Positions 8,440 to 57,560 of a stretch of DNA of 64,000 nucleotides are shown piece after piece (the stretch's first letter is position 1; each line of letters starts with the position of its first letter). This DNA comes from Planctomycetota bacterium (GTDB lineage: Bacteria; Planctomycetota; Phycisphaerae; Phycisphaerales; Phycisphaeraceae). Made by a program: the position numbers and the translations under genes. Where the stretch lies: assembly GCA_039025855.1 (NCBI GenBank), contig JBCCNL010000001.1, forward strand, positions 106,988-170,987, in the 5' to 3' direction. Below the pieces are notes generated by a model. That model was not told the DNA's origin. It made no database searches and saw only the letters and a program-made list of their open reading frames with translations.

Positions 8440-8514
8440 CCTTCTCCCGACGCCTGTTCAGGATGTCACATCAACCCCTCCCAAGCAACCCGTAATCCCA
8501 AACAAACCGTCACG

Positions 8515-9702: not shown

Positions 9703-9854
9703 CGCTCAGTCTTACGCTCAACTCCCCAAGGTCCGCCGAAGTCTACCCGCGCCCACCGCTAAACCAAGCCGCACCCCTCAGGCCCGCCACCCAGCTGCCC
9801 CAAGCTCACCCGCAAAGTCAAGTCGCCTCTATTGCCTAATCTTCCCAATCGACT

Positions 9855-36100: not shown

Positions 36101-38661
36101 TCGAGATGCACGGCTCTGTCGGCCTGCTCCGCTACCGCAGCGCCGCCCGGGCCATGGCCGGCTACTGGTGGGCCACGCTCGAAGACCGCCGGCTCCGCGA
36201 ACGCCTCACCCATCAGCTCGCCGGCTTCGGCACCGTCGGCGACGTCTTCGCCTCCGCCACCCAGCAACGCGCCTACATCGACGAGCTGTCCCAACACCTC
36301 CACCGCTTCGCCGAAGGCCTCGACCTTTTCGACGCATCGCTCTCATCAGAAGCGGGCGAGTACCTCTTCTATGAGCTGACCGAACCCAAAGACGGGCTCG
36401 TGGTCAGCCCCGAAGCGGCCGAGCTGTTCGACGCCTTCAACAACCACCTCCGCGGCAACCGCTCGCTGAAAAAGTTCCGCGACTCGATCGAAGCCCTCAA
36501 CGACGCCTGGCTCGCCCGCTTCGGCCTCATCCGCGACTGGGCCCACGCCTTCCTCAGCGAGAGCGACGACTTCCCGTCCGACATCTACCGCCACTACGCC
36601 GACGAGTTGGCCCTGCTCCTGCTGCACGGCAAGCCCCCGACCGACCGCATCCACACCGCGAGCGTCCGCCGTGAGCTCGACGGGCTCATCGGCTCACACG
36701 CCGTGATCGATCAGGGCCAATACAGCCTGGACTACAACGAGTTCCTCGCCCGCCTCCGCCACTTTGCCGGCCACACCGTCCCCCGCTTCGAGGCCTACAC
36801 CCACCTGAAACAACAGCTGCTTGATGCTGCCCGCGACGAGATGCGGCTGGACGAGTTCAAGCCCAAGGTCCTCACGTCCTTCGTCCGCAACCAGCTCATC
36901 GACAAGGTCTTCCTCCCACTGATCGGCGACAACCTCGCCAAGCAGATGGGCACCGCCGGGACGGACACCCGCACCGACCGCATGGGCCTGCTCCTGCTCA
37001 TCTCCCCGCCCGGCTACGGCAAGACCACCCTCATGGAGTACATCGCCAACCGCCTCGGCGTCATCTTCATGAAGATCAACGGCCCCGCGATCGGCCACTC
37101 CGTCACCTCCATCGACCCCGCCGAGGCCACCAACGCCGCCGCCCGCGAAGAGCTCGAAAAACTCAACCTCGCCTTCGAGATGGGCGACAACGTCGTGATC
37201 TACGTCGACGACATCCAGCACACCCACCCCGAGTTCCTGCAGAAGTTCATCAGCCTGTGTGACGCCCAGCGGCGCATCGAGGGCGTGTACAAGGGCAAGA
37301 CGCGGACCTACGACTTCCGCGGGCGGAAGGTCGCCGTGGTCATGGCGGGCAACCCGTACACCGAGTCGGGCGAGCGGTTCGCGATCCCCGACATGCTCGC
37401 CAACCGGGCCGACACCTACAACCTCGGCGACATCATCGGCGACCACGCCGAGGCCTTCAAGATGTCGTACCTCGAGAACTGCCTCACCTCAAACCCCGCG
37501 CTCAACGCCCTCGCGTCCCGCAGCCAGAAAGACGTCTATGGCGTGATCAAGATCGCGGAGACCGACAGCCGCGACGGCGTCGAGTTCGAGGGCAACTACG
37601 GCCGGGACGAGCTCGACGAAATGGTCAACGTGATGAAGAAGCTCATCACCGTCCGCGACGTCATCCTGAAGGTCAACCTGCAGTACATCGCCTCGGCCGG
37701 GCAGGAAGACGCCTACCGCACCGAACCCCCCTTCCAACTCCAGGGCTCGTACCGGAACATGAACCGCATCGCCGAGCGGGTGGTCCCCGTGATGAACGAC
37801 GCGGAACTGCAAACGCTCATCTCCTCGAGCTACGAGCAGGACGCGCAGACCCTGACAACCGGTGCCGAGGCCAACCTGCTCAAGCTCCGCGAGATGTTGG
37901 GCTGGATCACCGATGAGGAGGCCGAGCGTTGGGACGACATCAAGCGGACATTTGTCCGCAACAACTCGGTCAACGCGCTAGGCGGTGACGACAAGACGGC
38001 CGCGGTGCTGACGCAGATGGCCGGCCTCAATCAGGGCCTCGGCGACATCGGCAGCGCACTGTCGACCGGCCTCGATGCTTTGAAAGATGCGGATGCATCA
38101 ACGGATGAGGCGGAACCGATCGCGATCGATCTCGCCCCGCTCGCCGAGCAGATGGCGTCGTTCGCCCAGGGGCTCACGGGTATCCGCGAAGCCATGGCGA
38201 CTGTCGCCGAACGCGCCGCGGCGCCAGTCCCACAAGCACCCAAGCCCGTACCGCAGAACGGCCCCGTCGAAGCACGTTTCGACCAGGGCACGCTCGACGC
38301 GATCCAGGCCCTCACCCAGCAGATGGCCGAGCAGGCCCGGGCCGCGCCGCACTCGCCCGCTATCAACGGCGAAGTACCCGTCTCGAACCGCCCCACCGAC
38401 GAACCGGACGACCCCCCGCACGAGATCCGCGTGATCAACAAGATCCCCGCGACGTTCCTCTACGTGATGAAGGAGCAGTTCAAGCTGATGCAGGCCTGGA
38501 TGGAGCCGCTGACCCGGATCACCGCCGACCAGGACGACCAACTCAAGCAGATGCGGGGCTCCATCCAGCAGATCGTCTCGCGGTACGACGACATGATCCA
38601 ACGGCTCGAGAAGAAGCGGGCGTCCGCCGGAGACGAGATCGATGACGACGCCGATGCTTAG
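33115..38661 (+). CDS. 1,848-aa protein: N-terminal beta-rich domain, long coiled coil, MoxR/AAA_5-type AAA+ ATPase core, helical C-terminal region
   Basis: Walker A LLLISPPGYGKTTLMEY (about 37006-37029). Walker B VVIYVDDIQH. The MoxR-like segment is VAVVMAGNPYTESGERFAIPDMLANRADTYNLGD. Heptad-rich sequence runs about 34.6-35.7 kb. Clean codon bias throughout. Confidence 0.85.
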   Translation: MAETPEATSEALPEDPTPSQGPSHDQIDQGAYEVIRRRLDTHGRDLRTRLDQLNARRKEVFGSIDFKLIDNERITTGNNCVPRDIAAVGDRFLMGFNVHFGLKSHVELDDVFAIYRFDGSTFHADDLSLLDNEDFAKDFTDLFRFYKNAKFAKFFREGPHVYMKFHVGRDVDDFKAFKWAIEGESLRYMGNRSDHEVRYPEQHDFTWTRATREMQTQGAFPHYSIEDIVFVEATGGDFTIKVEDNSNTGEGIYVEPVENADQSLDDAEIHYCVVGHIVLLKVRPYQERNFRYYIFNAKLQQVHREDSLGEACVLLPESHGLVFSRGYYLASGKYQRFPGIPDDLIFERKISAPNGEDFAFLFYHRRQGIYVILAYNLIDQSIDTPLVTNGYAFFGDGRVVFFKTPEDAEPQKHHAIQVWQTPFVGPNYVAPPGEESYLSKIGNRDIVRGMAECVEVLELLSREDLYSDLYVDLVKTTSDLLDAYFWLDHDESANLAEPLGEIKTAAEAAIGEYEKVTRIRRNTERQIAAVTREAEDLVNTNATRIYDNILVYVEALASLREVRGKTIALKELRYADLKHIDELEERVKDQTASLSQRCVDFLLDEKSLTPYQAAAEEHDAKIDSLTKATDAKELAELVQKSADELEMLIEIVGNLRIEDTTHRTEIVDNISAIFGQLNATRTRLRNKQQELGRAEGVSEFNSQLKLLNQSVVNYLDLSDDPEKTEQYLTKVMVQIEELEGRFAEFDEFVIQLTEKRDEVYTAFENRKLQLVEKRNKRADALGQAAGRILSSIKSRVDGMEQINAINSYFASDLMIDKVRDICEQLAELDDTVRVDDIQSRLKAIREDAVRQLKDRQDLQADGRNTIRFGRHVFSVNNQAVDLTTITRGGEMKLHLTGTQFFEAIEDQQLLETQDVWSQEVVSEDTTVYRAEYLAYLMHEQLTRGEPAELQALLKETDDDSDPILDAVRSFMGPRYSEGYTKGVHDADAAVLLRALLEMHGSVGLLRYRSAARAMAGYWWATLEDRRLRERLTHQLAGFGTVGDVFASATQQRAYIDELSQHLHRFAEGLDLFDASLSSEAGEYLFYELTEPKDGLVVSPEAAELFDAFNNHLRGNRSLKKFRDSIEALNDAWLARFGLIRDWAHAFLSESDDFPSDIYRHYADELALLLLHGKPPTDRIHTASVRRELDGLIGSHAVIDQGQYSLDYNEFLARLRHFAGHTVPRFEAYTHLKQQLLDAARDEMRLDEFKPKVLTSFVRNQLIDKVFLPLIGDNLAKQMGTAGTDTRTDRMGLLLLISPPGYGKTTLMEYIANRLGVIFMKINGPAIGHSVTSIDPAEATNAAAREELEKLNLAFEMGDNVVIYVDDIQHTHPEFLQKFISLCDAQRRIEGVYKGKTRTYDFRGRKVAVVMAGNPYTESGERFAIPDMLANRADTYNLGDIIGDHAEAFKMSYLENCLTSNPALNALASRSQKDVYGVIKIAETDSRDGVEFEGNYGRDELDEMVNVMKKLITVRDVILKVNLQYIASAGQEDAYRTEPPFQLQGSYRNMNRIAERVVPVMNDAELQTLISSSYEQDAQTLTTGAEANLLKLREMLGWITDEEAERWDDIKRTFVRNNSVNALGGDDKTAAVLTQMAGLNQGLGDIGSALSTGLDALKDADASTDEAEPIAIDLAPLAEQMASFAQGLTGIREAMATVAERAAAPVPQAPKPVPQNGPVEARFDQGTLDAIQALTQQMAEQARAAPHSPAINGEVPVSNRPTDEPDDPPHEIRVINKIPATFLYVMKEQFKLMQAWMEPLTRITADQDDQLKQMRGSIQQIVSRYDDMIQRLEKKRASAGDEIDDDADA

Positions 38662-39593: not shown

Positions 39594-39648
39594 ACCACCA
39601 CTGGTCCAACTCCAGCGGGTGACGCGTGGTGCCTTTGTCCGGTCGTCG

Positions 39649-41436
39649 ATGAATACTCCCCCGCCACAACACGCCTTCTTCAGCGACCTCGCCCGCATGC
39701 TCAACGCCGGGCAGTCGCGCAGTGTCATGCTGACCGGCGAGGTCCACGACCTGTTCTACCTTGAGGCCGCCGACCGCTACGTCCCGCTGGTCCCCTACCT
39801 CTGCCGGCGATGCTCGGTCGAGGGCGTCGTCCCCCTGGTCTACGAGCTCAACGGCCCGATCCGCTGCACCAACGCCGGCGACCGCAGAACCCTCAAAGAA
39901 GCATGGGTCCGCTGGAAGACCGGCCAATCCCTCGACCAGCTCATCCTCCAATCGCTCAACGACGAGTCGGCCCGCCAGCGCCGCGAGTCCCTCGAAGAAC
40001 AGTTCGACCGACTCACCGCCGAGGCCGCCGGCCGACCCACCGCCGCCCTCGAGATGCTTCGGCAACTCACGCTCTGCTCCCGCGCACAAGCGGCACTCGG
40101 CGGCAAGCGGTTCCGGCTGCTCATCCTGGTCGAGGCCGCCGATATGCTCCTCCCCGCGGCCGACGGCGACATCACTCGGCTCAGCGCCAGCGACCGCCAG
40201 CGCGTCGCCATCTGCCAAGACTGGTTCAGCGATCCCGCCTTCATGGAGGGCGACGACAGCGTGGTACTCCTCGCCGAGTCCCGCAGCGCCATCCACCCCC
40301 GCGTCACCCGCCTGCCCCAGATGCTCACCGTCGAGGTCCCTGCCCCCGACGAGGCCCGGCGTGCCTTCTACATCGAACGCTTCACCCGCGACCGCCCGGT
40401 CAAAATCGACATGGGCACCGACGGCCTCGCCCGCCTCTCCGCCGGGCTTTCGCTGCACGCGTTGCGTCAGCTCCTGGTCGCCTCCGCCCACACCGGCACA
40501 TCCATCACCCACCACGCGGTCATCGACCTCGTCGAGCACCACATCACCAGCGCCCTCGGCGAGGGCGTCGTCGAGTTCAGCAAACCCTCGCACACCCTCG
40601 ACGATGTCGTGGGTCACCGCCGGCTGCGCGCGTTCCTCAACGACGAGCTGATCCCCCGCATCAAGTCGACCGGCGAAGACGCCCTGCCCGGCGCCGCGAT
40701 CGCCGGCCCAATCGGCTCGGGCAAGACCTTCGTCTTCGAGGCCGTCGCGGGCGGGCTCGGCCTCCCCGTCCTCGTGCTCAAGAACATCCGCAGCCAATAC
40801 TTCGGGCAGACCGACGTCATCTTCGAGAAGCTCCGACGCGTCCTCGAAGCGCTCGGCAAGGTCATCCTGTTTGTCGACGAGGCCGACACCCAGTTCGGCG
40901 GCGTCGGCGGCGACGCCCACCCCACCGAACGCCGGCTCACCGGCAAAATCCAGGCTTTGATGAGCGACCCCAAGCTCCGCGGCCGAGTCGTCTGGCTGCT
41001 CATGACCGCACGCATCGAACGCCTCAGCCCCGACATCCGACGCCCCGGCCGAGTGGGCGACCTCATCATCCCCGTGCTCGACCCCGCCCCGGGCAGCGAC
41101 GATCGCCGCGACTTCCTCCGCTGGGTCCTCAAGGGCGTCTTCGACCACCCCGACGACGCACTCCTCAATGAACTCGACCAGCTCACCCCCGGCTACTCCG
41201 CCGCCGCCTTCGCCGCCCTCCGCTCACTGCTCAAAGCCAAGGCCGCCGCGCAAGGCCAGCTCGACGCCGCCACCATCCGTGAGGTCGTCGCCGACGTCAT
41301 CCCCGCCGACATCGGCGACCAACGCGAACGCCAGACCCTCCAGGCCCTGCTCAACTGCACCCGCCGATCACTCCTGCCCGACCCGGACATCGACGAGTCC
41401 ACCCGCGAGGCGTGGCGGCGAGCCCTCGGCCAGTGA
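39649..41436 (+). CDS. Tandem AAA+ ATPase: degenerate N-terminal module plus classical-clade C-terminal AAA module
   Basis: C-terminal module: Walker A IAGPIGSGKTFV (about 40705-40728), Walker B VILFVDEAD (about 40861-40887), and second region of homology SPDIRRPGRVGDLIIPVLDP. The N-terminal module has a Walker-B-like FRLLILVEAADML but no GKT P-loop (VMLTGEVHD). The track start GTG is at 39619; I prefer the ATG at 39649. Confidence 0.85.
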   Translation: MNTPPPQHAFFSDLARMLNAGQSRSVMLTGEVHDLFYLEAADRYVPLVPYLCRRCSVEGVVPLVYELNGPIRCTNAGDRRTLKEAWVRWKTGQSLDQLILQSLNDESARQRRESLEEQFDRLTAEAAGRPTAALEMLRQLTLCSRAQAALGGKRFRLLILVEAADMLLPAADGDITRLSASDRQRVAICQDWFSDPAFMEGDDSVVLLAESRSAIHPRVTRLPQMLTVEVPAPDEARRAFYIERFTRDRPVKIDMGTDGLARLSAGLSLHALRQLLVASAHTGTSITHHAVIDLVEHHITSALGEGVVEFSKPSHTLDDVVGHRRLRAFLNDELIPRIKSTGEDALPGAAIAGPIGSGKTFVFEAVAGGLGLPVLVLKNIRSQYFGQTDVIFEKLRRVLEALGKVILFVDEADTQFGGVGGDAHPTERRLTGKIQALMSDPKLRGRVVWLLMTARIERLSPDIRRPGRVGDLIIPVLDPAPGSDDRRDFLRWVLKGVFDHPDDALLNELDQLTPGYSAAAFAALRSLLKAKAAAQGQLDAATIREVVADVIPADIGDQRERQTLQALLNCTRRSLLPDPDIDESTREAWRRALGQ

Positions 41437-41545
41437 TCACGACCGGTTCAATCCCTCAACCGCACTTCCGCAGCGCACCGGCCACCACCCCACCGCCGGC
41501 GACAAGTCTGCCATGATGTAGCGTCCTCTCCTCAGGACTCTTCCC

Positions 41546-42712
41546 ATGAAAATCACCGATGTCAAAGTCTGGCTCGTCCGCGGCGTCAAATACAACTGGA
41601 CCCTCCTCAAGGTCTACACCGACACCGGACACACCGGCGTCGGCGAAGCCACCAACTGGCCCGGCTCACCCATCATCGAGGCCGCCGCTAAGCACGTCGG
41701 GCAGCGCGTCATCGGGCTCGACCCCATGCGCACCGACTTCATCTGGACCAAGCTCTACCGCGACCTCAACTGGATCGGGCCCTACGGCGCCAGCCTCTGC
41801 GCCATCTCCGGCCTCGACATGGCCCTGCTCGACCTCAAGGGCAAAGTCCTCGGCACCCCCTGCTACCAACTCCTCGGCGGTGCCTACCGCACCGAGCTCC
41901 TGCTCTACGCCAACTACTGGTTCGATCGCGGCGAACACACCCCCGAGGACTACGCCAAGCAGGCCCAGGCCGTGGTCGACGCCGGCTTCACCGGGCTCAA
42001 GTTCGACCCCTTCGCCCACACCAACTACCTCTACGGCGACCACCTCTCCGACAACCTCACCCTCACCCCCGCACAACAAGACCTCGCCTACAACCTCACC
42101 GCCGCCGTCCGCGAAACCGTCGGCCCCGACTTCGAGATGATGATCGAGACCCACGCCATGCTCAACGGTGACATCGCCGTCAAGATGGCCGAACGCCTCG
42201 GGCCCCTCGGCGTCACCTGGTACGAAGAACCCGCCGGCCCCGAGAGCGCCGAGACCCTCGCCGCCCTCCGAAGGCGCCTGCCCAGCAATATCCCCATCAC
42301 CGTCGGCGAACGCCACTACACCCGCCACGCCTTCCGACCCATCTTCGAGAAGCACGTCTGCGATGTCGTCATGCCCGACGTCACCCGCTGCGGCGGTCCC
42401 TCCGAACTCAAGCGCATCGCCACCATGGCTGAGGCCTACAACGTCCTCATCGCTCCGCACAACCCCAACGGCCCGCTCTGCACCCTCGCCAGCGCCCACG
42501 TCTGCGCGTCGATCCCCAACTTCTTCCGCTGCGAGTTCATGTTCATGGACGTCCCGTGGCGCGACACCGTCATCGACCACCCCCTCGACGTCCGCGACGG
42601 CAAGCTCCACCTCTCCGATCGCCCGGGCCTCGGCGTCGACCTCGTCGAAGACGAGATGGAAAAACACCCCGGCGTCCGCGACGTCAGCGAGATCCACAAC
42701 TTCTACGTCTGA
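41546..42712 (+). CDS. Enolase-superfamily enzyme (mandelate racemase/muconate lactonizing family; sugar-acid dehydratase or cycloisomerase-like)
   Basis: MKITDVKVWLV...LLKVYTDTGHTGVGEAT...ISGLDMALLDLKGKVLGTPCYQLLGG...MIETHA...WYEEP... Confidence 0.85.
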   Translation: MKITDVKVWLVRGVKYNWTLLKVYTDTGHTGVGEATNWPGSPIIEAAAKHVGQRVIGLDPMRTDFIWTKLYRDLNWIGPYGASLCAISGLDMALLDLKGKVLGTPCYQLLGGAYRTELLLYANYWFDRGEHTPEDYAKQAQAVVDAGFTGLKFDPFAHTNYLYGDHLSDNLTLTPAQQDLAYNLTAAVRETVGPDFEMMIETHAMLNGDIAVKMAERLGPLGVTWYEEPAGPESAETLAALRRRLPSNIPITVGERHYTRHAFRPIFEKHVCDVVMPDVTRCGGPSELKRIATMAEAYNVLIAPHNPNGPLCTLASAHVCASIPNFFRCEFMFMDVPWRDTVIDHPLDVRDGKLHLSDRPGLGVDLVEDEMEKHPGVRDVSEIHNFYV

Positions 42713-42715
42713 CCC

Positions 42716-44794
42716 TCAGAAACTCAACCGCTCCGCGTGCTCTTCATCGCGCACCAACACCTGCCGCCGCTGGTGCGTCGCCATGCGTCCCGCCCGACGC
42801 TGCGCCGCCCGGAACAGCCACCCCAACACCCACCCCGGTAGACGCACCGGCACCGACTTCAACAGCCGCCGACGCACCGGCGTGAACTTCACCAGCAGCG
42901 GATCGTCCAGGCTCGTGATCACCGTCGCCGTCCCCGGCTCGCCCTGCCGTGCGCTGCGACCTTCAAGCTGCCGATCTACCCGGCGTGACTCGTGACGATC
43001 CGTCGCAATCACCGCCAGCCCGCCCCGCTCGACCACGCCCTCAGGCAGCTTGATGTCCGTCCCCCGACCCGCCATGTTCGTCGCCACCGTCACCCGCCCC
43101 AGCTGCCCCGCCTCCGCGACAATCGCCGCCTCCTGCTCGTGCAGGTGCGCGTTTAGCACCGCATGCGGAACGCCCGCGCCCGTCAGCCGAACGCTCAGGC
43201 TCTGGCTGTCATCCACACTCCGCGTGCCCACCAGCACGGGCCGACCCGCAGCGTGCATTTCCCTCGTCAGCTCTGTCACCGCGTCCCACTTGGCATCCAA
43301 CGTCGGCAGCGGCCGAACAGTCTGGGTCTCGCGGCGGCATACCCGGTGCGTCGGGATCCGCACCGTCTGCATCCGATAGGTCCGCCAAAGCTCCGCCCGT
43401 TCTCCCCACGCGGTCCCGGTCATCCCGCTCAGCCGGCGGTACAGCCGGAAGAACCGCTGGAAGCTGATCGCCGCCAGCGTGTGGTTCAGGTCGCTGACCT
43501 CCAGGCCCTCCTTCGACTCGACCGCCTGGTGCAGCCCCGCCTGCCACGTGCGGTCGGGCATCAGCCGGCCCGTGCTCTCGTCCACAATCACCACCTTGCC
43601 ATCCTGCACCACGTACTGGTCGTCGCGCAGATACAGGTACTGCGCCACCAACGCCTGATACACCCGCTCTTCCAGGCGACGCACCGGGCTACGGTCCGCA
43701 TCGCCTCTCGAACCCACCAACCGCTTGATGTGTTGCCGACCCGCCTGCGTCAGGCGCAGGTCCCGGTGCCGCCGATCCAGCCGGAAGTCGCGGTCGGGCT
43801 GCAGCCGCGCCGCCAACGCCGTGGCGTCCCGATACGTGAACTCCCGGGCGTCGCCGCCCGGTGCCGTATCCGCCTTCGGCCCCGAAATAATCAACGGCGT
43901 CGTCGACTCATCAAGCAAGATCGAGTCGGCCTCGTCAATGATCGCCGCCTCACCGCGGAAGAACCGGCCCTGCGACCGCGTCGACTCACCCGTCAGGTTC
44001 CGGGCCAGAACCGAAGCGAGCGGCATCGACGCACGATCGGTCTGCGCCTGTTCCTGCAGCAGGTCACGCAGGTAGTCCGCGGCCGCCTCCTTGTGCGTCG
44101 TGTACGTGATGTCGGCCGCATACGCGCTGCCCCGATCGTGAGGCGGCGTGCCACCCGTGATGTAAGCCACGCGCAGCCCCGCGCCGCCAAACAACGGCTT
44201 GGCCCACTGGGCGTCCCGTTTAGCCAGGTAGTCGTTCACGGTGAAGACGTGACAACCCCGGCCGTGCCACCCGACCAGGCAGGCGGCCAGCGCCGCCACC
44301 AGCGTCTTGCCCTCGCCCGTCGCCATCTCCGTCATCCGGCCATCCAGCAACGCCGCGGCCGCCGCGACCTGCACGCGGTACGCATTGAGCCCCAGGGTCC
44401 GCCGCGCCGCCTCCCGGATCAGCGCGAGCGCTTCAACCCGCTGCTCGACCGTGACCGACCCTCGCCGAAACACCGCACGCTGCTCCGCCAGCCGCCCGCT
44501 CAACGCATCGATGTGCAACTCCCTGCACACCGCCTCCTGCGCGAGCACGCGGTCCGCCAAACGCAGATAACGACGCACCGAACACCGCCCCGCAACCAGG
44601 TGCGACGCGACCCACTCGTACACCGCATCGGCATGCCGACGCGGCTTCGCCGGCTGCCGGTTATGCGATCGGCTCCGCCACGCCTCCCCATCACGCCACA
44701 GCTTCGCCAGCGCCGGCGTCTGCAACTCACCCGGCCGCGCTACGCCCACGGGCTGGTTCGGGTCAGACGGGAACAGCGTGGTCAGGCTCGACAT
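42716..44794 (-). CDS. SecA-like DEAD-motor ATPase lacking the canonical SecA C-terminal scaffold, wing and CTL domains
   Basis: Colinear with the SecA NBD1-PPXD-NBD2 region: TEMATGEGKTLVAALAA (about 44298-44326), HVFTVNDYLAKRDAQW, AIIDEADSILLDESTTPLIISGP, NMAGRGTDIKL, GGLAVIATDRHESRRVDRQLEGRSARQGEPG. Only about 50 aa follow NBD2. The ATG at 44794 shares 1 nt with the upstream stop (TGATG). The track start is 44881. Confidence 0.8.
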   Translation of the reverse strand: MSSLTTLFPSDPNQPVGVARPGELQTPALAKLWRDGEAWRSRSHNRQPAKPRRHADAVYEWVASHLVAGRCSVRRYLRLADRVLAQEAVCRELHIDALSGRLAEQRAVFRRGSVTVEQRVEALALIREAARRTLGLNAYRVQVAAAAALLDGRMTEMATGEGKTLVAALAACLVGWHGRGCHVFTVNDYLAKRDAQWAKPLFGGAGLRVAYITGGTPPHDRGSAYAADITYTTHKEAAADYLRDLLQEQAQTDRASMPLASVLARNLTGESTRSQGRFFRGEAAIIDEADSILLDESTTPLIISGPKADTAPGGDAREFTYRDATALAARLQPDRDFRLDRRHRDLRLTQAGRQHIKRLVGSRGDADRSPVRRLEERVYQALVAQYLYLRDDQYVVQDGKVVIVDESTGRLMPDRTWQAGLHQAVESKEGLEVSDLNHTLAAISFQRFFRLYRRLSGMTGTAWGERAELWRTYRMQTVRIPTHRVCRRETQTVRPLPTLDAKWDAVTELTREMHAAGRPVLVGTRSVDDSQSLSVRLTGAGVPHAVLNAHLHEQEAAIVAEAGQLGRVTVATNMAGRGTDIKLPEGVVERGGLAVIATDRHESRRVDRQLEGRSARQGEPGTATVITSLDDPLLVKFTPVRRRLLKSVPVRLPGWVLGWLFRAAQRRAGRMATHQRRQVLVRDEEHAERLSF

Positions 44795-47031
44795 CAGAGA
44801 CTCAGCCCCAGCGGGGACGCGTTCGGATCGCCCGGCACCTGGAACCGCCGCTGCAACACCTGCCGCGCCGAGCGGTACCACTGCTGCAGCAGCGGCTTGT
44901 CCGGCAGGCTGAAACGCACCACCACCGTCTGCCCGTGCTGCATCGCCCAGGCGACCTGCTCCGCATCCGCCGCCTCACCCAGCTCGGGTTCGATCACGAT
45001 CTCGAAGTACGGCTCGGCCGCGGTCGTCCCCTGCGGGTCCGTCGGGTCGGTCGCGATCTGCCCCCCCGCCGCCTCCGACAACGCCGCCGAAGGCAGCCGA
45101 CGCTGACCCGCGGGCATCGCCTGCACCACCCGGCCCGAAAAACCACGGTCGGGCTGATCGGTCGGACGCACCTCCACCCGGTGATCCGCCTGCAACAAAC
45201 GCGGCCCCTCAAACTGATCCGCCGCCACCCGCACCGTCAGCCGACCCGTCTCCGCCAACACGCCAACCGGTTCACCCCGCCGCACATAGTGCCCCTGCAC
45301 ATCGTCATCCAGTGCCGGCGTCCACGTCCCCGCGAATCCCGCCGTCATCACCAGCGACGCCCGCCGCTCCCGCGCCTTCGCCAGAAGGTCCCGTGTCGCC
45401 GCCAGCTGCTCCGCAATCACCTGCCGCTGGATCGGCTCCTCCACCACCGCCCGGCGATACCGCGCTTCCAGCAACGCCTGCCGCGCCTCCAGCTCCAACA
45501 CCTCCGCGTCCAGCCGGGGGTTCGCCGCCGACACCAGCACCCCCCCCGCCGACACCTCCGCATCCGACCCCGCGATCGATTCCACAAACCCCTCCGCCTC
45601 GGCATGCACCGTCACCAGCCGTGCCGGCTCCAACACCCCCAGCGCCCTCGGCCGGTCCGGCACCGGCACCCACCCCAACACCAGCAACGGCCCGCCGATC
45701 ATCAACACCGTCGCCAGCACCGCCCGCCCACGCACCCGCGCCGGCTCCGGCGACGCGCTCAGGTAATGCACCAGCTTGATCGACGGGATCACCAGATACC
45801 CCACCAACGCCAAGATCACAAAGATCGCCCCAATGAAGAACAGCTTGTCCGCCACAAACATGATGATCACCACGCCAAGGAACAGCCGGTACGCCAACGA
45901 CGCCAGCCCGAACACCACAAACCAGAAGCGCTCCTTGAGGTTCCCACCCGCCGCCGGATTGATCAGCTGCCGCACCCCGTAGACATACCGCCGGATTAGG
46001 TACGTCATGTACTGCTGCGCACGCTGATACAGGTTCGGCGTCTCGATGACATCGGACAGGATGTAGTAACCATCAAACTTGATCAGTGGGTTCGCGTTGA
46101 ACAGGATCGTCGACACACCAGCGATGAAGATCAGGTTGTAAGCCAACGCGTGGGCCAGCGTCCCGTCCGCCGTCTGCGACCAGACCACCGCCGCCACCGC
46201 CGCCACCGCGAGCTCGGCATACATCCCCGCCGCCCCCACAAACGCCCGCTGCCATTTGCTCGGAAGCGTCCACGCACTCGTCGCATCGACATACGGCACC
46301 GGCGTCAACACCATCAGCATGATCCCCACCGTGTGCACCTCGCCCTGCCCGTGACGCCGACGCCCGAACCGCTTGCACGCAAACGCATGCCCCAACTCGT
46401 GCAGCAGCTTGATCCCCACCAGACACACGTAAAGCCAAATCAAGTTCTGCGGCGCAAGCACATTCCCCGTCTGCGCCCACAGCTCATCAAACCGCCCCAG
46501 CAACGACCACCCACCCAGCACCAGCAGCCCGGCCCACAGCACCCAGCCCACCGGCCCAAACAACCAGGCCACCGCCGGCAGCCAACGATTCAAAAACCGG
46601 TCCGGGTCCCAGATCGGCACCCGCGCAAACAACAGGTTCTTGAGATACCCACCCACCTCCTTGCGGATCCGCTTCTGCCGCCGTTCAAACATCCGCCCCG
46701 CGTCCGGTGACAGCTCGTGGTCCAACAAGTTGCTCGTGTGCAGCTGCCCGATCAGCCGCAGCGCCTCGCCCTGTGTTGGCGCCTCGTCCTCGAGCTGTTC
46801 CTGTACCGCTTCCCACGCGTCCTGGATGCTCCGACGCCCGTCGAGCAGCCCGACAAACCGATACCCCGCTGCGCTCAGCCGGAAGTGCTGGTTGTTCGAC
46901 GGGTCCATCACCACGTACCACTGCCTACCGCGATATTGCTGACGACCGCACTGCACCGTCGAGCGCAGCCTCGGCTTCGTCTCCGCAATGCGGTGCCAGG
47001 AGTCGTCGTAGGTCGGCCGTTCAAACGCCAA
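44794..47031 (-). CDS. Fusion protein: PqqD-like (RRE-like) N-terminal domain, M50 (site-2-protease-type) membrane metalloprotease, C-terminal HlyD-type adaptor
   Basis: N-terminus: FRLSAAGYRFVGLLDGRRSIQDAWEAVQEQLEDEAPTQGEALRLIGQLHTSNLL (PqqD-like pattern). HExxH in a TM helix: IKLLHELGHAFACKRFG (about 46381-46401). C-terminus: barrel-sandwich, coiled-coil hairpin and beta-barrel MFP pattern (LVTVHAEAEGFVESI...VLELEARQALLEARYRRA...). Confidence 0.75.
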   Translation of the reverse strand: MAFERPTYDDSWHRIAETKPRLRSTVQCGRQQYRGRQWYVVMDPSNNQHFRLSAAGYRFVGLLDGRRSIQDAWEAVQEQLEDEAPTQGEALRLIGQLHTSNLLDHELSPDAGRMFERRQKRIRKEVGGYLKNLLFARVPIWDPDRFLNRWLPAVAWLFGPVGWVLWAGLLVLGGWSLLGRFDELWAQTGNVLAPQNLIWLYVCLVGIKLLHELGHAFACKRFGRRRHGQGEVHTVGIMLMVLTPVPYVDATSAWTLPSKWQRAFVGAAGMYAELAVAAVAAVVWSQTADGTLAHALAYNLIFIAGVSTILFNANPLIKFDGYYILSDVIETPNLYQRAQQYMTYLIRRYVYGVRQLINPAAGGNLKERFWFVVFGLASLAYRLFLGVVIIMFVADKLFFIGAIFVILALVGYLVIPSIKLVHYLSASPEPARVRGRAVLATVLMIGGPLLVLGWVPVPDRPRALGVLEPARLVTVHAEAEGFVESIAGSDAEVSAGGVLVSAANPRLDAEVLELEARQALLEARYRRAVVEEPIQRQVIAEQLAATRDLLAKARERRASLVMTAGFAGTWTPALDDDVQGHYVRRGEPVGVLAETGRLTVRVAADQFEGPRLLQADHRVEVRPTDQPDRGFSGRVVQAMPAGQRRLPSAALSEAAGGQIATDPTDPQGTTAAEPYFEIVIEPELGEAADAEQVAWAMQHGQTVVVRFSLPDKPLLQQWYRSARQVLQRRFQVPGDPNASPLGLSL

Positions 47032-47057
47032 TGCAGAACCTCAATCGTCAATCGGCG

Positions 47058-49073
47058 TCAGAGCCAGAGCTGCATCCGCACCCAGTTCACCGCGTCCCGC
47101 GTCCACAACCAGAGGTGGCTCGACTCGCCCGCATCCAGCCGGGCCGCGCCCGTCATCCCCGGCCGAAGCCAGACCGGCTGACGGTCCAGCTCCACCTCCG
47201 CCGCGAACACGTTCCGCCCCTCGTGCACCTTCGCCTGAGGCTCGATCGACCGCACCGTGAAGCCCACCCGCTGATCCGGGTAACTCGTCGTCGCCAGCTC
47301 GCCCCGCATCCCCAGCGTCACCTCTCCCGCCCGGTCCTCCGGGATATAAAGCTCCGCCCGCAGCGCCTCCACGGGCGCGACCTCAAAGAGCGTGTCGCCC
47401 TCCGTCACCGCCTTCCCGATCTCACGCTTCAGGTCGCCCGCCATCACCATCCCGCCCAGCGACGACCGCAGTGCCGCCATCTCGATCTGCCGTTCAATCA
47501 AGCGGCGCTTCGCCGCCGTCGCCTCCGCCTCCGCCATCGACACCTGAACGCCCGACATGTCCGACTCCCGCCGCGCCGCCTCCGCCTGCTTCCGCTGCGC
47601 CGTCTCCTGCGCCCAGAGCTCCGCCGCCTGCAACCGGAGCTCCGCCGTATCCAGCTCCGCCAACACCGTCGCCCCCGCCTGCACCGCATCGCCCGGCCCA
47701 ACATGCACCGACTTCAGATACCCCGCGAACGGCGCCGTCACCAGCTGCCGCTGCGTCGCCTCAATCACAAAGCTCGACTCCACATGGTCCGTCCCCTTGC
47801 CCAGCGTCAACCACAGCACCAACGCCAAGAGCCCGACCGCTGCGACCTTCGCCCAGGTGTACTGCGTGCCCAGCGCTTTGCCGAGCACCCGTGTGCTCCC
47901 GTCCTTGAGCCGACCCCCCACCCAACGGTCACGCTGCCGCAGCGGCACCAGCAACGGCGTCGCCAACTCACCAATCAACCGCAACCGCGTCAACCGCTGC
48001 GCCGTCTCCGCGGCGTCCTTCGGCAGCTCGTTCCACTCCAGCGTCAGCACCGCCACCACCCCGCCCTCCCGTCCCTGCTCCGACTCGCCGCTCACCTCGC
48101 CCTTCGCCCCGCCCACGTGACGCAGCGGAAGCGACACCGCACACGCCGAGCCGTGCTGCTTCGTCAACGCCTGATGGTCTCGGCTCACCACCGGCACCTC
48201 GGGCGGCGCGGGCCACACCACCTCGATGTCCTGATCCAGACACTCGTGCATCGCCGACTCCAGGTCCTGCACCAGCTTCATCCGCCGGTTCAGCCGCTCG
48301 GTCCGGCTCATCGCGATCAGCTTGAGCGCCTCCCGCTGCGGCTCCACCCAACCCAGGCTCACCCGCTCCGCCCCGTGCCGCGACGCCAGCTCGTTGCACA
48401 ACCCCATGGCCGCCTCACGGAACCGCCGACAACGCCCCAGCGCCGCCAAGACATCCACCGATTCCGTCAGCCGATCGATCCCGCCCTGCTTCTGGTGCAG
48501 CTGCGCCCGCGCGTCATACGCCCCGAGCAACCCAAGCGTCAGCTCCACCTGCTGCGCCGCCCGATCCACCTCGCCCCGCGACACGCCCTGAAGCCCCAGC
48601 GCCACCATGAACCGTCCTTCCCCGCCATCCAACCCGACCGACTGCGGCAGGCCCAACAACACCAAGAACTGCTCACTCGCCGACTCCGGCGGCGCAGTCG
48701 TTGCGGTCGCATTCTCAGCCGGGACGGACTGACGGATCCCCATCACCACCGGCGTCGACCGCGCAAACACCCGCTCCGCCTGCTCCGCCGCGAACCGCAC
48801 CCAGGGCGGTGGCAACCGATCCGGGTGCGGGTTGTAGTCCGCCACCACCGCCGGCCCGGACTGCGGCATAAACCGGATCACCACCCCGTGGTCCGCGCCC
48901 GTCAGCCGGCCCTGAAGCGTCACCAACCGCTGCAGGAACTCCGGAGCCGGGCCATCGAACCGCGCCAGCATCTCCACGACCGTCGGCCGCTTCGCGTCGG
49001 CCGCCGGCTGCTGCCCCAAGCCCCCACCCGACAGCCCCGCACCACCCGAAGAAGATCGACCTGATTCATCCAT
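47058..49073 (-). CDS. HlyD-family adaptor with large cytoplasmic N-terminal region (two GAF-like modules), one TM helix and a periplasmic MFP domain
   Basis: TM helix KVAAVGLLALVLWLTLG. The MFP part reads LVTAPFAGYLKSVHVGPGDAVQAGATVLAELDTAELRLQAAELWAQE...GMTGAARLDAG. Calling the N-terminal ~330 aa GAF-like is a pattern-level, low-certainty call. Confidence 0.65.
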   Translation of the reverse strand: MDESGRSSSGGAGLSGGGLGQQPAADAKRPTVVEMLARFDGPAPEFLQRLVTLQGRLTGADHGVVIRFMPQSGPAVVADYNPHPDRLPPPWVRFAAEQAERVFARSTPVVMGIRQSVPAENATATTAPPESASEQFLVLLGLPQSVGLDGGEGRFMVALGLQGVSRGEVDRAAQQVELTLGLLGAYDARAQLHQKQGGIDRLTESVDVLAALGRCRRFREAAMGLCNELASRHGAERVSLGWVEPQREALKLIAMSRTERLNRRMKLVQDLESAMHECLDQDIEVVWPAPPEVPVVSRDHQALTKQHGSACAVSLPLRHVGGAKGEVSGESEQGREGGVVAVLTLEWNELPKDAAETAQRLTRLRLIGELATPLLVPLRQRDRWVGGRLKDGSTRVLGKALGTQYTWAKVAAVGLLALVLWLTLGKGTDHVESSFVIEATQRQLVTAPFAGYLKSVHVGPGDAVQAGATVLAELDTAELRLQAAELWAQETAQRKQAEAARRESDMSGVQVSMAEAEATAAKRRLIERQIEMAALRSSLGGMVMAGDLKREIGKAVTEGDTLFEVAPVEALRAELYIPEDRAGEVTLGMRGELATTSYPDQRVGFTVRSIEPQAKVHEGRNVFAAEVELDRQPVWLRPGMTGAARLDAGESSHLWLWTRDAVNWVRMQLWL

Positions 49074-49085
49074 CGCCGATCCTTT

Positions 49086-49952
49086 TCAATTCGCCACCGC
49101 CGTCGGCTCCGCGTCCGCTTCCTGAACCAAAGCCTCCGCCTCCCGCGGCAGCCACACCAGGAACCCAGCCGGCAGCGACAGGTCGCTGTTGTCAATCGCA
49201 AACACACACCGGAACGTCTGACTCGCCGGGTCGATCATCGGGTCCACCCACTTCAGCTCCGCCCGCAAGCCCCGCCCCACCGGTGCCCCCGCCTGCAGCT
49301 CGTACCGCTGACCCACCTCCATCTGCCCGTACCGCGCGACCGGCAAAAACAGCTCGGCCTTGAGTTCCGTCAACGACGCAAACACCGCCACCGGATCGCC
49401 CTGGTCCACCGTCGCACCCGGCTGCGCCTCCAGCTTCATCACCCGCCCATCGAACGGCGCCTTCAGTGCAAACCGTTCCAGACGCGCCTGCTCCAGATCA
49501 AACTGCAGCGCCGCCGCATCACGATCCTGCTTCGCGATCGCCAGGTCGATCTTCGAGAGCTCCAGCTGCACCCGAGCCTGACGGACCTCCCAGTCCGTCC
49601 CCGCGTCCTGCTTCACCATGTCCTTCGCCTGCTCCAGCCGGAGCTGCAACTCGTTGACCGCCTCGACCGCACGACGCACCGACAGGTCGCTCTCCGACCG
49701 CATCTGCGCCAACGCCACCGCCTCCGCCTGACCCCGATCCGCCAGCCTTGCGATCAACTCACCCGCCGACCGGGCCTCGCCCTCCGCCGCCAACTCACCC
49801 GGGATCACCTGGCCCACCGCCTCGGCCCGCAGCACCACGTACCGCGTCGGCTTCACGATGCCTTGATCCAGCATCGCGTCCTGCGCCGCCACAACACCCG
49901 CAGCACCAACGCTCACAAACGCAAAAATTGACCGTTTCAGGAGTTCTTTCAC
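49086..49952 (-). CDS. HlyD-family periplasmic adaptor (membrane fusion protein), signal-peptide form
   Basis: Signal peptide MKELLKRSIFAFVSVGAAGVVAAQD, a coiled-coil hairpin, and RFALKAPFDGRVMKLEAQPGATVDQGDPVAVF. Confidence 0.75.
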   Translation of the reverse strand: MKELLKRSIFAFVSVGAAGVVAAQDAMLDQGIVKPTRYVVLRAEAVGQVIPGELAAEGEARSAGELIARLADRGQAEAVALAQMRSESDLSVRRAVEAVNELQLRLEQAKDMVKQDAGTDWEVRQARVQLELSKIDLAIAKQDRDAAALQFDLEQARLERFALKAPFDGRVMKLEAQPGATVDQGDPVAVFASLTELKAELFLPVARYGQMEVGQRYELQAGAPVGRGLRAELKWVDPMIDPASQTFRCVFAIDNSDLSLPAGFLVWLPREAEALVQEADAEPTAVAN

Positions 49953-50056
49953 CCACTGAGACTACCGCCCGCCATCGACGTACACAAGAGATACTTCGCG
50001 CCGATTCAGGCCCGACCACGACGCCTTGTCAAGAGCACACTAAGTAATTCCGTAGA

Positions 50057-50199
50057 AACCGTTAACGAGTCTTCGAAAACCCGCCGCAGGGGCGATAAAC
50101 CACGCCCGGATCAAGGCCAGTCCCGCCCCGCTCCGACGCCCCATCAAATGGGCCGCTCGTGGTTGTTTCCGTCCCAACGGCCGATTATTGTTAACGGTT
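50057..50199. promoter_or_regulatory. 10-bp inverted repeat pair AACCGTTAAC (50057-50066) and GTTAACGGTT (50190-50199) in a divergent intergenic region
   Basis: Read directly. Both arms contain the AT-rich palindrome GTTAAC (the first is CGTTAACG), which is conspicuous in GC-rich DNA. The second arm abuts a TTGACA hexamer (50198-50203). Confidence 0.25.
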
Positions 50200-50376
50200 G
50201 ACAATCATCGCGACGATCCAGTCCCCCAAGCACGCGGCCCCTCGTTGTTTTCACCTCGTCGTGACACGGACCGCCAGGACGCACCGCTCACCCAGCGCGC
50301 CGCTCAGCCCGGCGACCAACCCCGCCATCTCCCCGCCGACTCCCCCCGCTCCTCCCGTCTCCAGAAAGCCCACGCC

Positions 50377-52053
50377 ATGAAGACCCCCACGCCGCTGCTT
50401 CTGATCCTGCTCCTGGCAATGACCAGCCTCGCCTGCACCGGCCCCAGCCCCACCGCCAAGGCCGACGGCCACAACCCGCCCGCACCCCCCAACATCATCT
50501 TCATCATCACCGATGACCAGGAGCGCCGAGAGCTCGGCTTCCTCGAAAACCAATCCCACACCCCCCACCTCGACGCCCTCGCCGCAGGCGGCACCTACTT
50601 CAGCAACTGCTACGTCAACTCCAGCGTCTGCACCCCCAGCCGCTACGGCGTCATGACCGGCCAATACGCCAGCCGAAGCGAAACCGACTTCTTCAAGCGG
50701 CACACCAGCGCAGAGGGCGTCACCCAGGTCGTCTGGAACCCCGGCCTCATGCCCGACCAGCCCACCCTCCCCTCGGTCCTCAAAGAAGCCGGCTACGCCA
50801 CCGGCTTCGTCGGCAAGTGGCACATCGGCAGCCTCAAACGCGCCCCGGGCCCCAAGCTCGAGCAAGGCGCCGACCCCGCCGACCAGGCCACCATCGCCCG
50901 CCTCAAAGCCAACCAAGCCTCCTTCGCCGAAGACCTCCGCACCAAAGGCTTCGACTTCGCCGACGCCATCTACTCCGGCAACCCCGACGACGACCAGGAA
51001 CTCAAACGCGTCGGCCTCAACGTCCACCACCAGGAGTGGGTCACCCGCGGCGGCCTCAATTTCATCGATCAGTCCGTCGCCCAGGACAAGCCCTTTTTCC
51101 TCTACTTCTCGACCACGCTCACCCACGTCCCCAAGCCGCTCGAATCCCTCAAGCTCGACCCCCGCGTCTCACCCATCGGCATGCTCGACGCACCCATCGA
51201 AGGCGTCCAACCCTCCCGCGCCGACGTCATCGCCCGCGGCCAACAACTCGGCATCCCCGAAGAACTCTGGGGCTCGATGTGGCTTGACGACGGTATCGGC
51301 GCCCTCACCGCCAAGCTCCGCGAACATGGCATCGAAGACAACACCCTCATCGTCTACTTCGTCGATCACGGCATGGAGTTCCGCAGCAAAGGCACCTCCT
51401 ATCAAGGCGGCCTCATCTCCCCAACCCTCTTCTTCTGGCCCGGCCAAGTCCCCGCGGGCAAGACCCAGGACGCCCTGATCCAGAACATCGACTTCGCCCC
51501 CACCTTCCTCGAACTCGCCGGTGCCACCCCGCCCGCAAGCATGGTGATCGACGGTAAGTCGCTCGTCGAACTCATCCGCGGCAGCGACGCCCCCGTCCGC
51601 AAGTCCGTCTTCAGCGAGCTCGGCCTCACCCGCACCGTCGTCACCGCCGACGGCTGGAAGTACCTCGCCTTCCACGTCCCGCCCAGCCTCCAACGCACGA
51701 CCGAAGAGCGTCTGGCCGACCACAAAAAGCGCCTCAGTGAGATCCACACCAAACACCCGTGGACCCGCAACAACCCGCACTACGCGCTCGACCCCGAAGC
51801 CAAGTACTTCCAGCTCGGCATGGCCGCCGGCGGCAACGTCTTCGAGCGCAACCAGCTCGCCGGCAATGTGCCTTTCCGAGCCCACTACTTCGACGCGCAT
51901 CAGCTCTTCAACCTCAACGCCGACCCGGACGAGACGACCAACCTCGCGGACGACCCGAAATACGCCGACAAGCTCGCCGAGATGCAGGCCGAGCTCACGG
52001 TCTACCTCGACAGCCTCCCCGGCACGTACGGCGACCTCAAGCCCAGCGAGTAA
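50377..52053 (+). CDS. Secreted sulfatase (formylglycine-dependent, S1 family)
   Basis: Signal/lipoprotein-like MKTPTPLLLILLLAMTSLACTG. NIIFIITDDQ. Active-site motif SSVCTPSRYGVMTG (CxPxR). The track ORF starts at 50188; I prefer the ATG at 50377. Confidence 0.85.
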   Translation: MKTPTPLLLILLLAMTSLACTGPSPTAKADGHNPPAPPNIIFIITDDQERRELGFLENQSHTPHLDALAAGGTYFSNCYVNSSVCTPSRYGVMTGQYASRSETDFFKRHTSAEGVTQVVWNPGLMPDQPTLPSVLKEAGYATGFVGKWHIGSLKRAPGPKLEQGADPADQATIARLKANQASFAEDLRTKGFDFADAIYSGNPDDDQELKRVGLNVHHQEWVTRGGLNFIDQSVAQDKPFFLYFSTTLTHVPKPLESLKLDPRVSPIGMLDAPIEGVQPSRADVIARGQQLGIPEELWGSMWLDDGIGALTAKLREHGIEDNTLIVYFVDHGMEFRSKGTSYQGGLISPTLFFWPGQVPAGKTQDALIQNIDFAPTFLELAGATPPASMVIDGKSLVELIRGSDAPVRKSVFSELGLTRTVVTADGWKYLAFHVPPSLQRTTEERLADHKKRLSEIHTKHPWTRNNPHYALDPEAKYFQLGMAAGGNVFERNQLAGNVPFRAHYFDAHQLFNLNADPDETTNLADDPKYADKLAEMQAELTVYLDSLPGTYGDLKPSE

Positions 52054-52068
52054 TCACCGAGACCTCTC

Positions 52069-52986
52069 ATGCCCATCGCCTCACGCCCTGTCACCCAAGC
52101 GGTCTGCATTTTCATTATGGCTCTAACCTCTTCCTTCACGTCCGGCTGCGCCGGCGACGGCTCGCCCACCACGGGCCCGTTCCTCTTGCCCGGAACCGAC
52201 ACCGACGCCGAGGCCCTGCGCTGGTCCCCGGTTGACAACATGTCCGACGAGTTCGACGGCAACACCGTCGACGCCACCAAGTGGCAGACCGAGCCCTTCG
52301 AGAACGGCTGGGTCTGGATCGGCCGACCTCCCGGGCTGTTCAAATCCGAAAACATCAGCGTCGCCGACGGCTCACTCAACGTCACCGTCAGCGGCCTGCC
52401 GGAAACGTTCGAGAAGAACGGCCGGACCTACGACTACCAGGGCGGCATCGTCCGCTCCCTCCACGCCGGACAGCCCGGCTGGTACTACGAGACCCGCATG
52501 AAGGCCAACGCGACCGTCATGTCCTCCACCTTCTGGCTCATGACCTCGAACCGATCGGCCAGCAAGAAGAAGCTCGAGCTCGACATCCAGGAGTGCGTCG
52601 GGCTCACCACCGACCTCACCTTCGACTGGGCCCGCACCTGGGACCAGATCTACCACTCCAACATGATCCACCGCGTCAACCAGTACAACCCAGAGCCGGT
52701 GCAGCACCAGAAATCCGTCCCCACGGAGACCAAGAACCACGAGCGCTACTACGTCTACGCCGCCTGGTGGAAGTCACCCGAAGAAGTCCGGTTCTACCTC
52801 GACGGGGCCTACGTCTACTCCATCACCCCACCGATCACCTGGGACGTCCCCGCCTTCCTCCAGATGGCCATCGAGACCTACGACTGGAACCCCGTCCCCG
52901 AGGACGGCGGGCTGATCACCACCGGCACGCTCGACCAACGCACCACCCGCTACGACTGGGTTCGCGTCTGGAAACCCGAACAGTAG
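52069..52986 (+). CDS. Glycoside hydrolase family 16 (agarase/porphyranase/carrageenase-type)
   Basis: GH16 catalytic motif ExDxxE present as KKLELDIQECVG. Lipoprotein-like signal ...IMALTSSFTSGC. Beta-jelly-roll pattern WVWIGRPPGLFKSENISVADGSLNVTV. Confidence 0.75.
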   Translation: MPIASRPVTQAVCIFIMALTSSFTSGCAGDGSPTTGPFLLPGTDTDAEALRWSPVDNMSDEFDGNTVDATKWQTEPFENGWVWIGRPPGLFKSENISVADGSLNVTVSGLPETFEKNGRTYDYQGGIVRSLHAGQPGWYYETRMKANATVMSSTFWLMTSNRSASKKKLELDIQECVGLTTDLTFDWARTWDQIYHSNMIHRVNQYNPEPVQHQKSVPTETKNHERYYVYAAWWKSPEEVRFYLDGAYVYSITPPITWDVPAFLQMAIETYDWNPVPEDGGLITTGTLDQRTTRYDWVRVWKPEQ

Positions 52987-53108
52987 ACACAGCCCGATCA
53001 CCCGCCCGACGCCGGCGGTCAACAGCGAGCCGGGGCGTGTCGCCCCGGTCCAACCAACCCGCCGCTCCCGCCCCCCACCACCCCCCACCGCCCCCACCGA
53101 GCCACCCG

Positions 53109-54500: not shown

Positions 54501-54535
54501 ACCACCCCACCCAGCACCGAACCAGGAACCGCGCC

Positions 54536-54904: not shown

Positions 54905-54919
54905 GCCAATCGGCCACCG

Positions 54920-57418: not shown

Positions 57419-57560
57419 CGTTTCTCTCGCAGGCTCGGTCGCTCGGGCACGACATCTCGAAGACGGGCATTGTAAATTGTTGGCTTTTCGGCGGCGTCAA
57501 CCCCCACACGTCTCCCACTACCCCTTACCAACCCCCACCACCTCCCCGAGACTTGCAACC

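Follow-up and report, generated by a model that had tools for sequence, protein, structure and literature searches.

A secondary module of SecA_DEAD, Peptidase_M50, GAF and HlyD proteins was described by Kamneva, Poudel and Ward in 2015 (PLoS One, PMC4452313), who proposed for it a secretion role similar to that of type I secretion systems (T1SS), with the SecA-like protein as the ATPase and the M50 protein as a membrane component and possible pore. The loss of the wing and scaffold from the SecA-like protein was noted in that work and the M50 similarity was called weak; a PqqD-like domain, DUF3467 and a substrate are not mentioned. Here we analyzed a 64-kb stretch of DNA from a Planctomycetota bacterium (contig JBCCNL010000001.1, positions 106,988–170,987; hereafter the window; G+C content of approximately 67%), in which the same four gene families occur in the same order as four contiguous genes (49952–42716). 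The third gene of this tight operon (44794–47031, minus strand, TTG start codon) encodes a protein of 745 amino acids (aa), in which a PqqD-like recognition element of the kind found in pathways to peptides that are ribosomally synthesized and modified post-translationally (RiPP recognition element, RRE) is fused to a site-2 protease (S2P, family M50) core and a membrane fusion protein (MFP) module. For this fusion we established the RRE, the fold and the catalytic motifs, and we propose a candidate substrate class, proteins with an N-terminal LEPR-XLL tag. The fusion is annotated but uncharacterized: a 100% identical database protein from a Planctomycetota metagenome-assembled genome is named ‘PqqD family peptide modification chaperone’, and the JGI name of the family is ‘putative peptide zinc metalloprotease protein’. 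Its three-domain logic is undiscussed in the literature, in which we found no paper with PqqD, M50 and HlyD together.

Several characterized systems share parts of this architecture. An RRE fused N-terminally to an intramembrane S2P has served as a handle for the discovery of daptides, in which the peptidase MpaP removes the leader. MpaP/DapP (NF041824) has, like the fusion, an N-terminal RRE followed by an S2P core, and it was the best NCBIfam match (E = 6.6e-52, residues 20–417), yet the score of 176.9 bits lies below the equivalog cutoff of 300. In addition, MpaP lacks the seventh helix and the MFP module, both present in the fusion, and the phyla differ. None of the components of a daptide context (precursor, DUF-RRE, dehydrogenase, aminotransferase, methyltransferase) was found in the window flanks or in related loci. 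Proteases of the M50/S2P clan also mature epipeptides, pearlins and TMcin, and EpeP is thought both to cut and to export its product. These enzymes (YydH/EpeP/LiaK, TglG, TmoG, TmcP) are, like the fusion, membrane proteins of the M50/S2P clan and they process ribosomal peptides, but they have no fused RRE or MFP and no SecA-like partner; the YydH/LiaK model (NF058609) scored 29.6 bits against the fusion, under its cutoff of 225. A working analogy may be drawn with peptidase-containing ATP-binding cassette (ABC) transporters (PCATs), HlyB-HlyD-TolC and the export of giant RTX adhesins, in which leader removal and ATP-driven export through an MFP-TolC duct come together. Giant RTX adhesins are, as would be the case here, repetitive calcium-binding substrates encoded beside their exporter. 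Unlike T1SS and PCATs, the operon and its related loci contain no ABC transporter or C39 peptidase; in their place stand a SecA-derived ATPase, a zinc S2P protease, a putative N-terminal signal and three distinct MFPs. The comparison is one of analogy and not of membership.

The RRE spans residues 20–103 of the fusion (46723–46974, minus strand) and is predicted to be cytoplasmic. Pfam PqqD (PF05402) matched residues 39–103 with 27.6 bits against a cutoff of 23.4 and covered model positions 2–67 of 67. In the AlphaFold2 (AF2) model three strands followed by three helices were placed at residues 27–99, which is the winged-helix fold of an RRE. When residues 1–140 were modeled separately, the top fold match was TbiB1 with its leader, followed by SuiB, CteB and LynD; the fold resembles the RREs of lasso, sacti- and cyanobactin enzymes. 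A phmmer search with residues 1–141 gave no match in the PDB, and the domain is detectable by profile and fold only. A preliminary description of the locus, made by reading the DNA without database searches, had recognized a PqqD-type domain in this N-terminus, and both the Pfam and the fold matches bear this out.

Conservation of the RRE was assessed in two alignments, one of 94 close relatives (46–76% identity) and one of 60 distant representatives (32–46% identity). PqqD was matched (E ≤ 0.01) in 28 of the 60 distant relatives. The mean frequency of the majority residue amounted to 0.76–0.77 for residues 1–103, against 0.71 in the protease core and 0.52 in the MFP, which makes the RRE the best-conserved segment of the fusion family; its conservation is still recognizable in alphaproteobacterial orthologues with 30–36% overall identity. 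R51 in strand 3 and T86, Q87, E89, L94, Q96 and L97 in helix 3 are invariant or nearly so. Strand 3 and helix 3 are where PqqD/RRE domains bind a precursor or leader peptide, and the RREs of RiPP pathways are usually highly variable. The conservation of this RRE across phyla, unlike that of RiPP RREs, suggests that its ligand is itself conserved. The N-termini of the SecA-like and GAF-MFP proteins were considered for this role; they are not conserved and make poor candidates.

The S2P core follows at residues 144–426 (45754–46602, minus strand) and consists of six helices and a re-entrant beta-hairpin. Pfam Peptidase_M50 matched residues 201–285 barely over its cutoff. The motif HELGHAF lies at residues 211–217, and within it the zinc-binding and catalytic HExxH motif (H211-E212-L-G-H215; 46387–46401, minus strand) is located inside membrane helix 194–225. 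The preliminary description had assigned this membrane core to M50 proteases and had proposed a search for the second motif with its Asp ligand. The alignments located it as N312-x-N-P-x-x-x-x-D320-G (46069–46098, minus strand), with Asp as the third zinc ligand; in the fusion it reads N312-A-N-P-L-I-K-F-D320-G. H211, E212, H215, N312, N314, P315 and D320 do not vary among the 94 close relatives, and the same residues are invariant in the 60 distant ones with the exception of H215, which is at least 90% conserved. With its catalytic motifs intact in both alignments, the protein is, as judged from sequence, no pseudo-protease.

The confident AF2 model of the complete fusion, built on the 94-sequence alignment (predicted local distance difference test score of 89.7, predicted template modeling score of 0.72), orders the RRE strands and helices, a six-helix S2P-like bundle with the fold of an S2P core, a hairpin at residues 235–248, a helix at 434–454 and the MFP. 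The helix at 434–454 (45670–45732, minus strand) would be the seventh to cross the membrane and would anchor the MFP, as indicated by the AF2 secondary structure and hydropathy. Behind it, the MFP module (residues 456–730; 44842–45666, minus strand) comprises a lipoyl domain, an alpha-hairpin (505–558) and a beta-barrel, the usual MFP architecture after an N-terminal membrane anchor. Pfam HlyD_3 aligned with residues 577–641 barely under its cutoff, and the family profile matched EmrA and MacA in the PDB by sequence; the MFP-type C-terminus noticed in the preliminary description was thus recovered as well. A cytoplasmic N-terminus and seven membrane helices would put the MFP in the periplasm, a putative topology that agrees with hydropathy.

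All four genes of the operon lie on the minus strand. The first encodes a small MFP of 288 aa (49086–49952) with an N-terminal signal or anchor and matches to HlyD_3, HlyD_D23 and RND_mfp. It is followed by the gene of the GAF-MFP (47058–49073, 671 aa), which comprises a GAF-like cytoplasmic domain, one membrane helix and an MFP matched by HlyD_3 and HlyD_D23; the GAF domain gives faint GAF matches in orthologues. The stop codon of the fusion overlaps the ATG of the SecA-like gene (ATGA), whose product of 693 aa (42716–44797) matches Pfam SecA_DEAD, SecA_PP_bind and P-loop_SecA. This ATPase aligns only with residues 15–553 of B. subtilis SecA, i.e. the first nucleotide-binding domain (NBD1), the preprotein cross-linking domain and NBD2. 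The protein retains intact Walker A (MATGEGKT), DEAD-type and TNMAGRGTDI motifs and stops shortly past NBD2, without the scaffold/wing and the two-helix finger. In SecA, the two-helix finger inserts into SecY. Two relatives, from Pseudosulfitobacter (L088, 15050–17074) and Methylosinus (L090, 14204–16120), are 44–47% identical to the window ATPase over approximately 600 residues; both are named ‘prepilin peptidase’ by RefSeq/PGAP, which by sequence is probably a misannotation. The operon is flanked by a divergent sulfatase gene and a convergent enolase-superfamily gene, and the wider window is rich in genes for polysaccharide degradation. A scan of the operon for promoters and terminators gave none above background, and PADLOC defence models matched none of the four proteins.

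The fusion belongs to a very large family without an assigned function. An exhaustive search returned 4,112 clusters at 50% identity (E ≤ 1e-30), and nearly all of the best 150 clusters have the same architecture of 715–740 aa. In the 90%-identity set, more than 6,200 matches were obtained among the candidates scored. Relatives occur in at least 583 species genomes, and the family extends to many cultured Alphaproteobacteria as well as to Planctomycetota, Verrucomicrobiota and Desulfobacterales. A Pfam scan of 60 diverse members detected M50 in 53, HlyD_3 in 35 and PqqD in 28, and all three domains are therefore family-wide. We then counted neighbors in 82 non-redundant loci from Phycisphaerae and other Planctomycetota, Verrucomicrobiota and Desulfobacterales. 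Among loci with enough flanking DNA, the GAF-MFP gene lies directly upstream of the fusion on the same strand in 61 of 66, and the SecA-like gene directly downstream on the same strand in 58 of 65. The small MFP recurs beside the module in related loci. An OEP/TolC gene was found in 11 of the 82 loci and in two alphaproteobacterial operons, and none lies within the window. A fusion without an adjacent SecA-like gene was seen in L041, where an unannotated open reading frame (ORF) of 582 aa follows, in L062, and in L068, where the fusion stands alone.

The module also includes, in part of the family, a DUF3467 protein of approximately 120 aa encoded directly before the GAF-MFP. It was found in 25 of 61 loci (e.g., L003, 7572–7964; L041, 7576–7935; L084, 8001–8393) and in five of the eight alphaproteobacterial operons examined, and is absent from the window and from the operons of its closest relatives. 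Three independent look-ups with DUF3467 proteins as the starting point each led to this same operon of five genes. Before its folded domain the protein has a semi-conserved, acidic and Gln-rich N-terminal stretch, [IL]-[ED]-[EQ]-Q-A-[RK]-[EQ]-Q-x-G. Neither a profile search of the PDB nor phmmer gave a meaningful relative of DUF3467, and its reading as a SecB-like chaperone was dismissed at an hhalign probability of 0.25%, obtained with an E. coli SecB sequence. The module is made up of the small MFP, sometimes DUF3467, the GAF-MFP, the RRE-S2P-MFP fusion, the SecA-like ATPase and sometimes TolC. The preliminary description had suggested mining for short ORFs with conserved leaders. We compared ORFs of at least 30 aa from 84 loci all against all, with frames that overlap the core genes masked; only DUF3467 and OEP recurred, and no precursor family or RiPP tailoring enzyme was detected. 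The same was true of the eight alphaproteobacterial loci, which held no conserved short precursor or tailoring enzyme.

A candidate for the conserved ligand came from the cultured Alphaproteobacteria. By tblastn against plasmids we found full-length orthologues of the fusion, named ‘site-2 protease family protein’, ‘peptidase M50’ or ‘PqqD family peptide modification chaperone’, in operons with the same gene order as the window module and in some cases with TolC. In all six of these plasmid loci with readable upstream sequence, a gene of 12–39 kb lies directly upstream on the same strand, and five of the six giants carry an N-terminal LEPR-XLL tag, a stretch of approximately 24 residues described by model NF012209 (‘LEPR-8K’, cutoff of 17 bits), as judged by scores of 29.7–34.1 bits or by the PGAP name. 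The tagged genes are those of Pseudosulfitobacter (38.7 kb, 32.5 bits, EALEPRFLLSADP), Pontibrevibacter (31.8 kb, 29.7 bits), Mesorhizobium ciceri (31.5 kb, 34.1 bits), Methylosinus (26.5 kb, 29.9 bits) and Thalassospira (12.1 kb, by PGAP name). A giant upstream in six of six loci, with LEPR-XLL in five, is hard to ascribe to chance. In the Pseudosulfitobacter operon (L088) a SapC family gene (14236–15057) lies between the fusion and the SecA-like gene. Matches to the fusion at E ≤ 1e-10 were also obtained in 17 Escherichia and eight Citrobacter plasmid records, none of them among the 15 best-scoring records.

A LEPR-XLL protein is also encoded in the window (1343 aa; 9855–13886, plus strand), and in it the tag occupies residues 38–58 (nucleotides 9966–10028; IESLEPRVLLSATP), as found by NF012209 (26.2 bits) and a motif scan. 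Besides the tag, the protein contains repeats of extracellular type, with a tandem-95 repeat, a Calx-beta-like region and a propeller of the PQQ-dehydrogenase kind, and it may be a substrate linked to the operon. Elsewhere in planctomycetes, L019 (22 bits) and L016 (motif only) each encode a LEPR-type protein directly upstream of the module, and L062 has two near it. Adhesin-like giants with Ig, LRR, PKD, lectin and dockerin domains adjoin the module in L021, L022 and L063, and in two Phycisphaerae contigs (L084 and L086) it is flanked by ORFs that exceed 3,500 and 7,000 aa; the N-termini of these giants are outside the fetched DNA or have no clear tag. As neighbors in loci of the Planctomycetota–Verrucomicrobiota–Chlamydiota (PVC) group they are heterogeneous adhesin-like proteins and not one shared family.

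The tag has a history of its own. The motif (RRLxxExLExRxLLA; Planc_extracel, PF07595) is presumed to be a new kind of export signal at the N-terminus of planctomycete surface proteins with its machinery unassigned, and this LExRxLL signal has been unexplained since 2004; in Tuwongella, eight of the ten longest proteins carry it. A 2026 preprint reports a 24-aa LEPRxLL domain on Chlorochromatium symbiosis proteins of 20,647 and 36,806 aa, notes that a SapC gene (Cag_662) adjoins the giant LEPRxLL genes and proposes TolC, SapC and HlyD for export of the giants; M50 and PqqD are unmentioned there. We found no paper that ties LEPR-XLL to RRE-S2P or SecA-like machinery, and the connection is one that we infer here.

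The anatomy of the fusion and its conserved operon, with two more MFPs, a SecA-like ATPase and, in some loci, TolC, fit leader recognition and cleavage coupled to export. On the basis of gene context, we consider the chances about even that the fusion is the central inner-membrane subunit of an envelope-spanning exporter for LEPR-XLL proteins, in which the RRE binds the tag, the protease cuts, and the SecA-like motor and the MFPs export. The order of events, in which we infer binding, cleavage, translocation path and stoichiometry, could be as follows. The cytoplasmic RRE would capture a short N-terminal sequence of the substrate, most likely the LEPR-XLL tag of approximately 24 residues or its planctomycete form ‘LExRxLLS’, and the S2P active site at the cytoplasmic face of the membrane would cut the tag off. 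The SecA-like motor, which has kept the polypeptide clamp and lost the SecY-inserting parts, would feed the unfolded chain into a periplasmic duct formed by the fused MFP, the GAF-MFP and the small MFP and leading to a TolC-type channel. Overall, the apparatus would act like a peptidase-containing type I exporter made of different parts. The wider proposal, that the module constitutes an unrecognized secretion pathway with the RRE as LEPR-XLL receptor and the S2P as dedicated signal peptidase, perhaps also forming part of the passage through the inner membrane, while the SecA-derived ATPase threads giants, the largest of them longer than 10,000 aa, to TolC through a duct of hetero-oligomeric MFPs, is put forward more tentatively, at somewhat less than even chances.

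A number of findings weigh against LEPR-XLL proteins as the substrates. Classical S2P substrates have a hydrophobic segment, which the tag lacks, and the Alisedimentitalea giant (24.4 kb) has no tag at its annotated start. In the window, 31 kb separate the LEPR-XLL gene from the operon. Only 5 of 54 PVC loci have an ORF of 900 aa or more directly upstream of the module, and ORFs with the LEPR motif number only four in 84 loci; by these two counts, LEPR motifs and giant ORFs show no general enrichment beside the module in PVC loci. The operon of a Thalassospira marina plasmid (L098), which comprises a LEPR-XLL gene, DUF3467, HlyD, the fusion, an MFP and TolC, lacks a SecA-like gene, and no other RRE of the alphaproteobacterial set is as divergent as the one encoded there.

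The rarity of LEPR genes beside the module in PVC loci would be expected if the apparatus worked as proposed on something else, such as DUF3467 or unlinked unmodified peptides or proteins, the giants being coincidental or only co-regulated. DUF3467 is attractive in this respect: its position before the GAF-MFP in 25 of 61 loci, its presence in alphaproteobacterial operons, the look-ups that led back to the same operon and its acidic, Gln-rich N-terminal stretch all suit a substrate of this apparatus. However, it is missing from the window and from the operons of the closest relatives, where the RRE is equally conserved, and the six of six alphaproteobacterial giants, five with LEPR-XLL, would be left as a coincidence. 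We regard a different substrate as unlikely, while giving it real weight. In another view, the fusion would serve RiPP maturation, removing the leader of a small modified peptide comparable to a daptide or epipeptide and exporting the product. Such a role would account for NF041824 being the best family match over residues 20–417, with YydH/LiaK as a weaker one, for an RRE fold shared with lasso, sacti- and cyanobactin enzymes, and for the use of M50 proteases in several RiPP classes. Yet both scores fall under their cutoffs (176.9 vs. 300 and 29.6 vs. 225 bits), neither a conserved short precursor nor a tailoring enzyme was found in the 82 PVC and eight alphaproteobacterial loci, the window flanks hold sulfatase and enolase-family genes, and the RRE is unusually conserved between phyla. 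This view we hold to be improbable. The preliminary description had suggested processing of a ribosomal peptide coupled to export; its scheme, in which recognition and cutting of a leader are coupled to export, agrees with both anatomy and operon, while a RiPP as the substrate finds no support in these same data.

A signaling device is the other explanation to be weighed, in which the protease would cut a membrane regulator, for instance an anti-sigma factor, by regulated intramembrane proteolysis, with the RRE as a substrate gate, the GAF domain as a sensor and the MFPs as periplasmic scaffolds and not a duct. Such cascades are a classical role of S2P enzymes, a GAF-like sensor domain is present in the partner protein, and in L003 a sigma-70 gene follows the SecA-like gene. 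Among the loci checked for it, however, a sigma factor gene was present in L003 only, and the neighborhood contains no conserved regulator. Three MFPs, the TolC genes of 11 loci and the SecA-like motor speak for transport; we consider signaling the least probable of these explanations.

What is new in our analysis is that the RRE is family-wide and hyper-conserved, together with the proposed link to LEPR-XLL giant proteins. If export of LEPR-XLL proteins by the module is correct, it would explain how these proteins, among the longest of bacteria, leave the cell and how the planctomycete-specific N-terminal export signal is read, and would assign a machinery to that signal as well as to the giant proteins of several symbioses. 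It would also mean that the RRE, regarded as a hallmark of RiPP biosynthesis, was recruited as a receptor for a secretion signal. The proposal is testable in those genetically tractable rhizobia that have the whole cassette on plasmids. For genome mining it should be borne in mind that the name ‘PqqD family peptide modification chaperone’ on these proteins does not mark a RiPP cluster.

Two further features of the window were recorded. On the plus strand, a protein of 1848 aa (33115–38661) combines DUF3686 (‘ATPase involved in DNA repair’), DUF7902 and an AAA domain; it is preceded by two unannotated ORFs (30105–30917 and 30942–33059), followed by an AAA protein of 605 aa (39619–41436, plus strand), and could be an uncharacterized ATPase system. 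In addition, GC skew is strongly negative (−0.25 to −0.49) over long stretches of positions 2000–14000 and 40000–58000.

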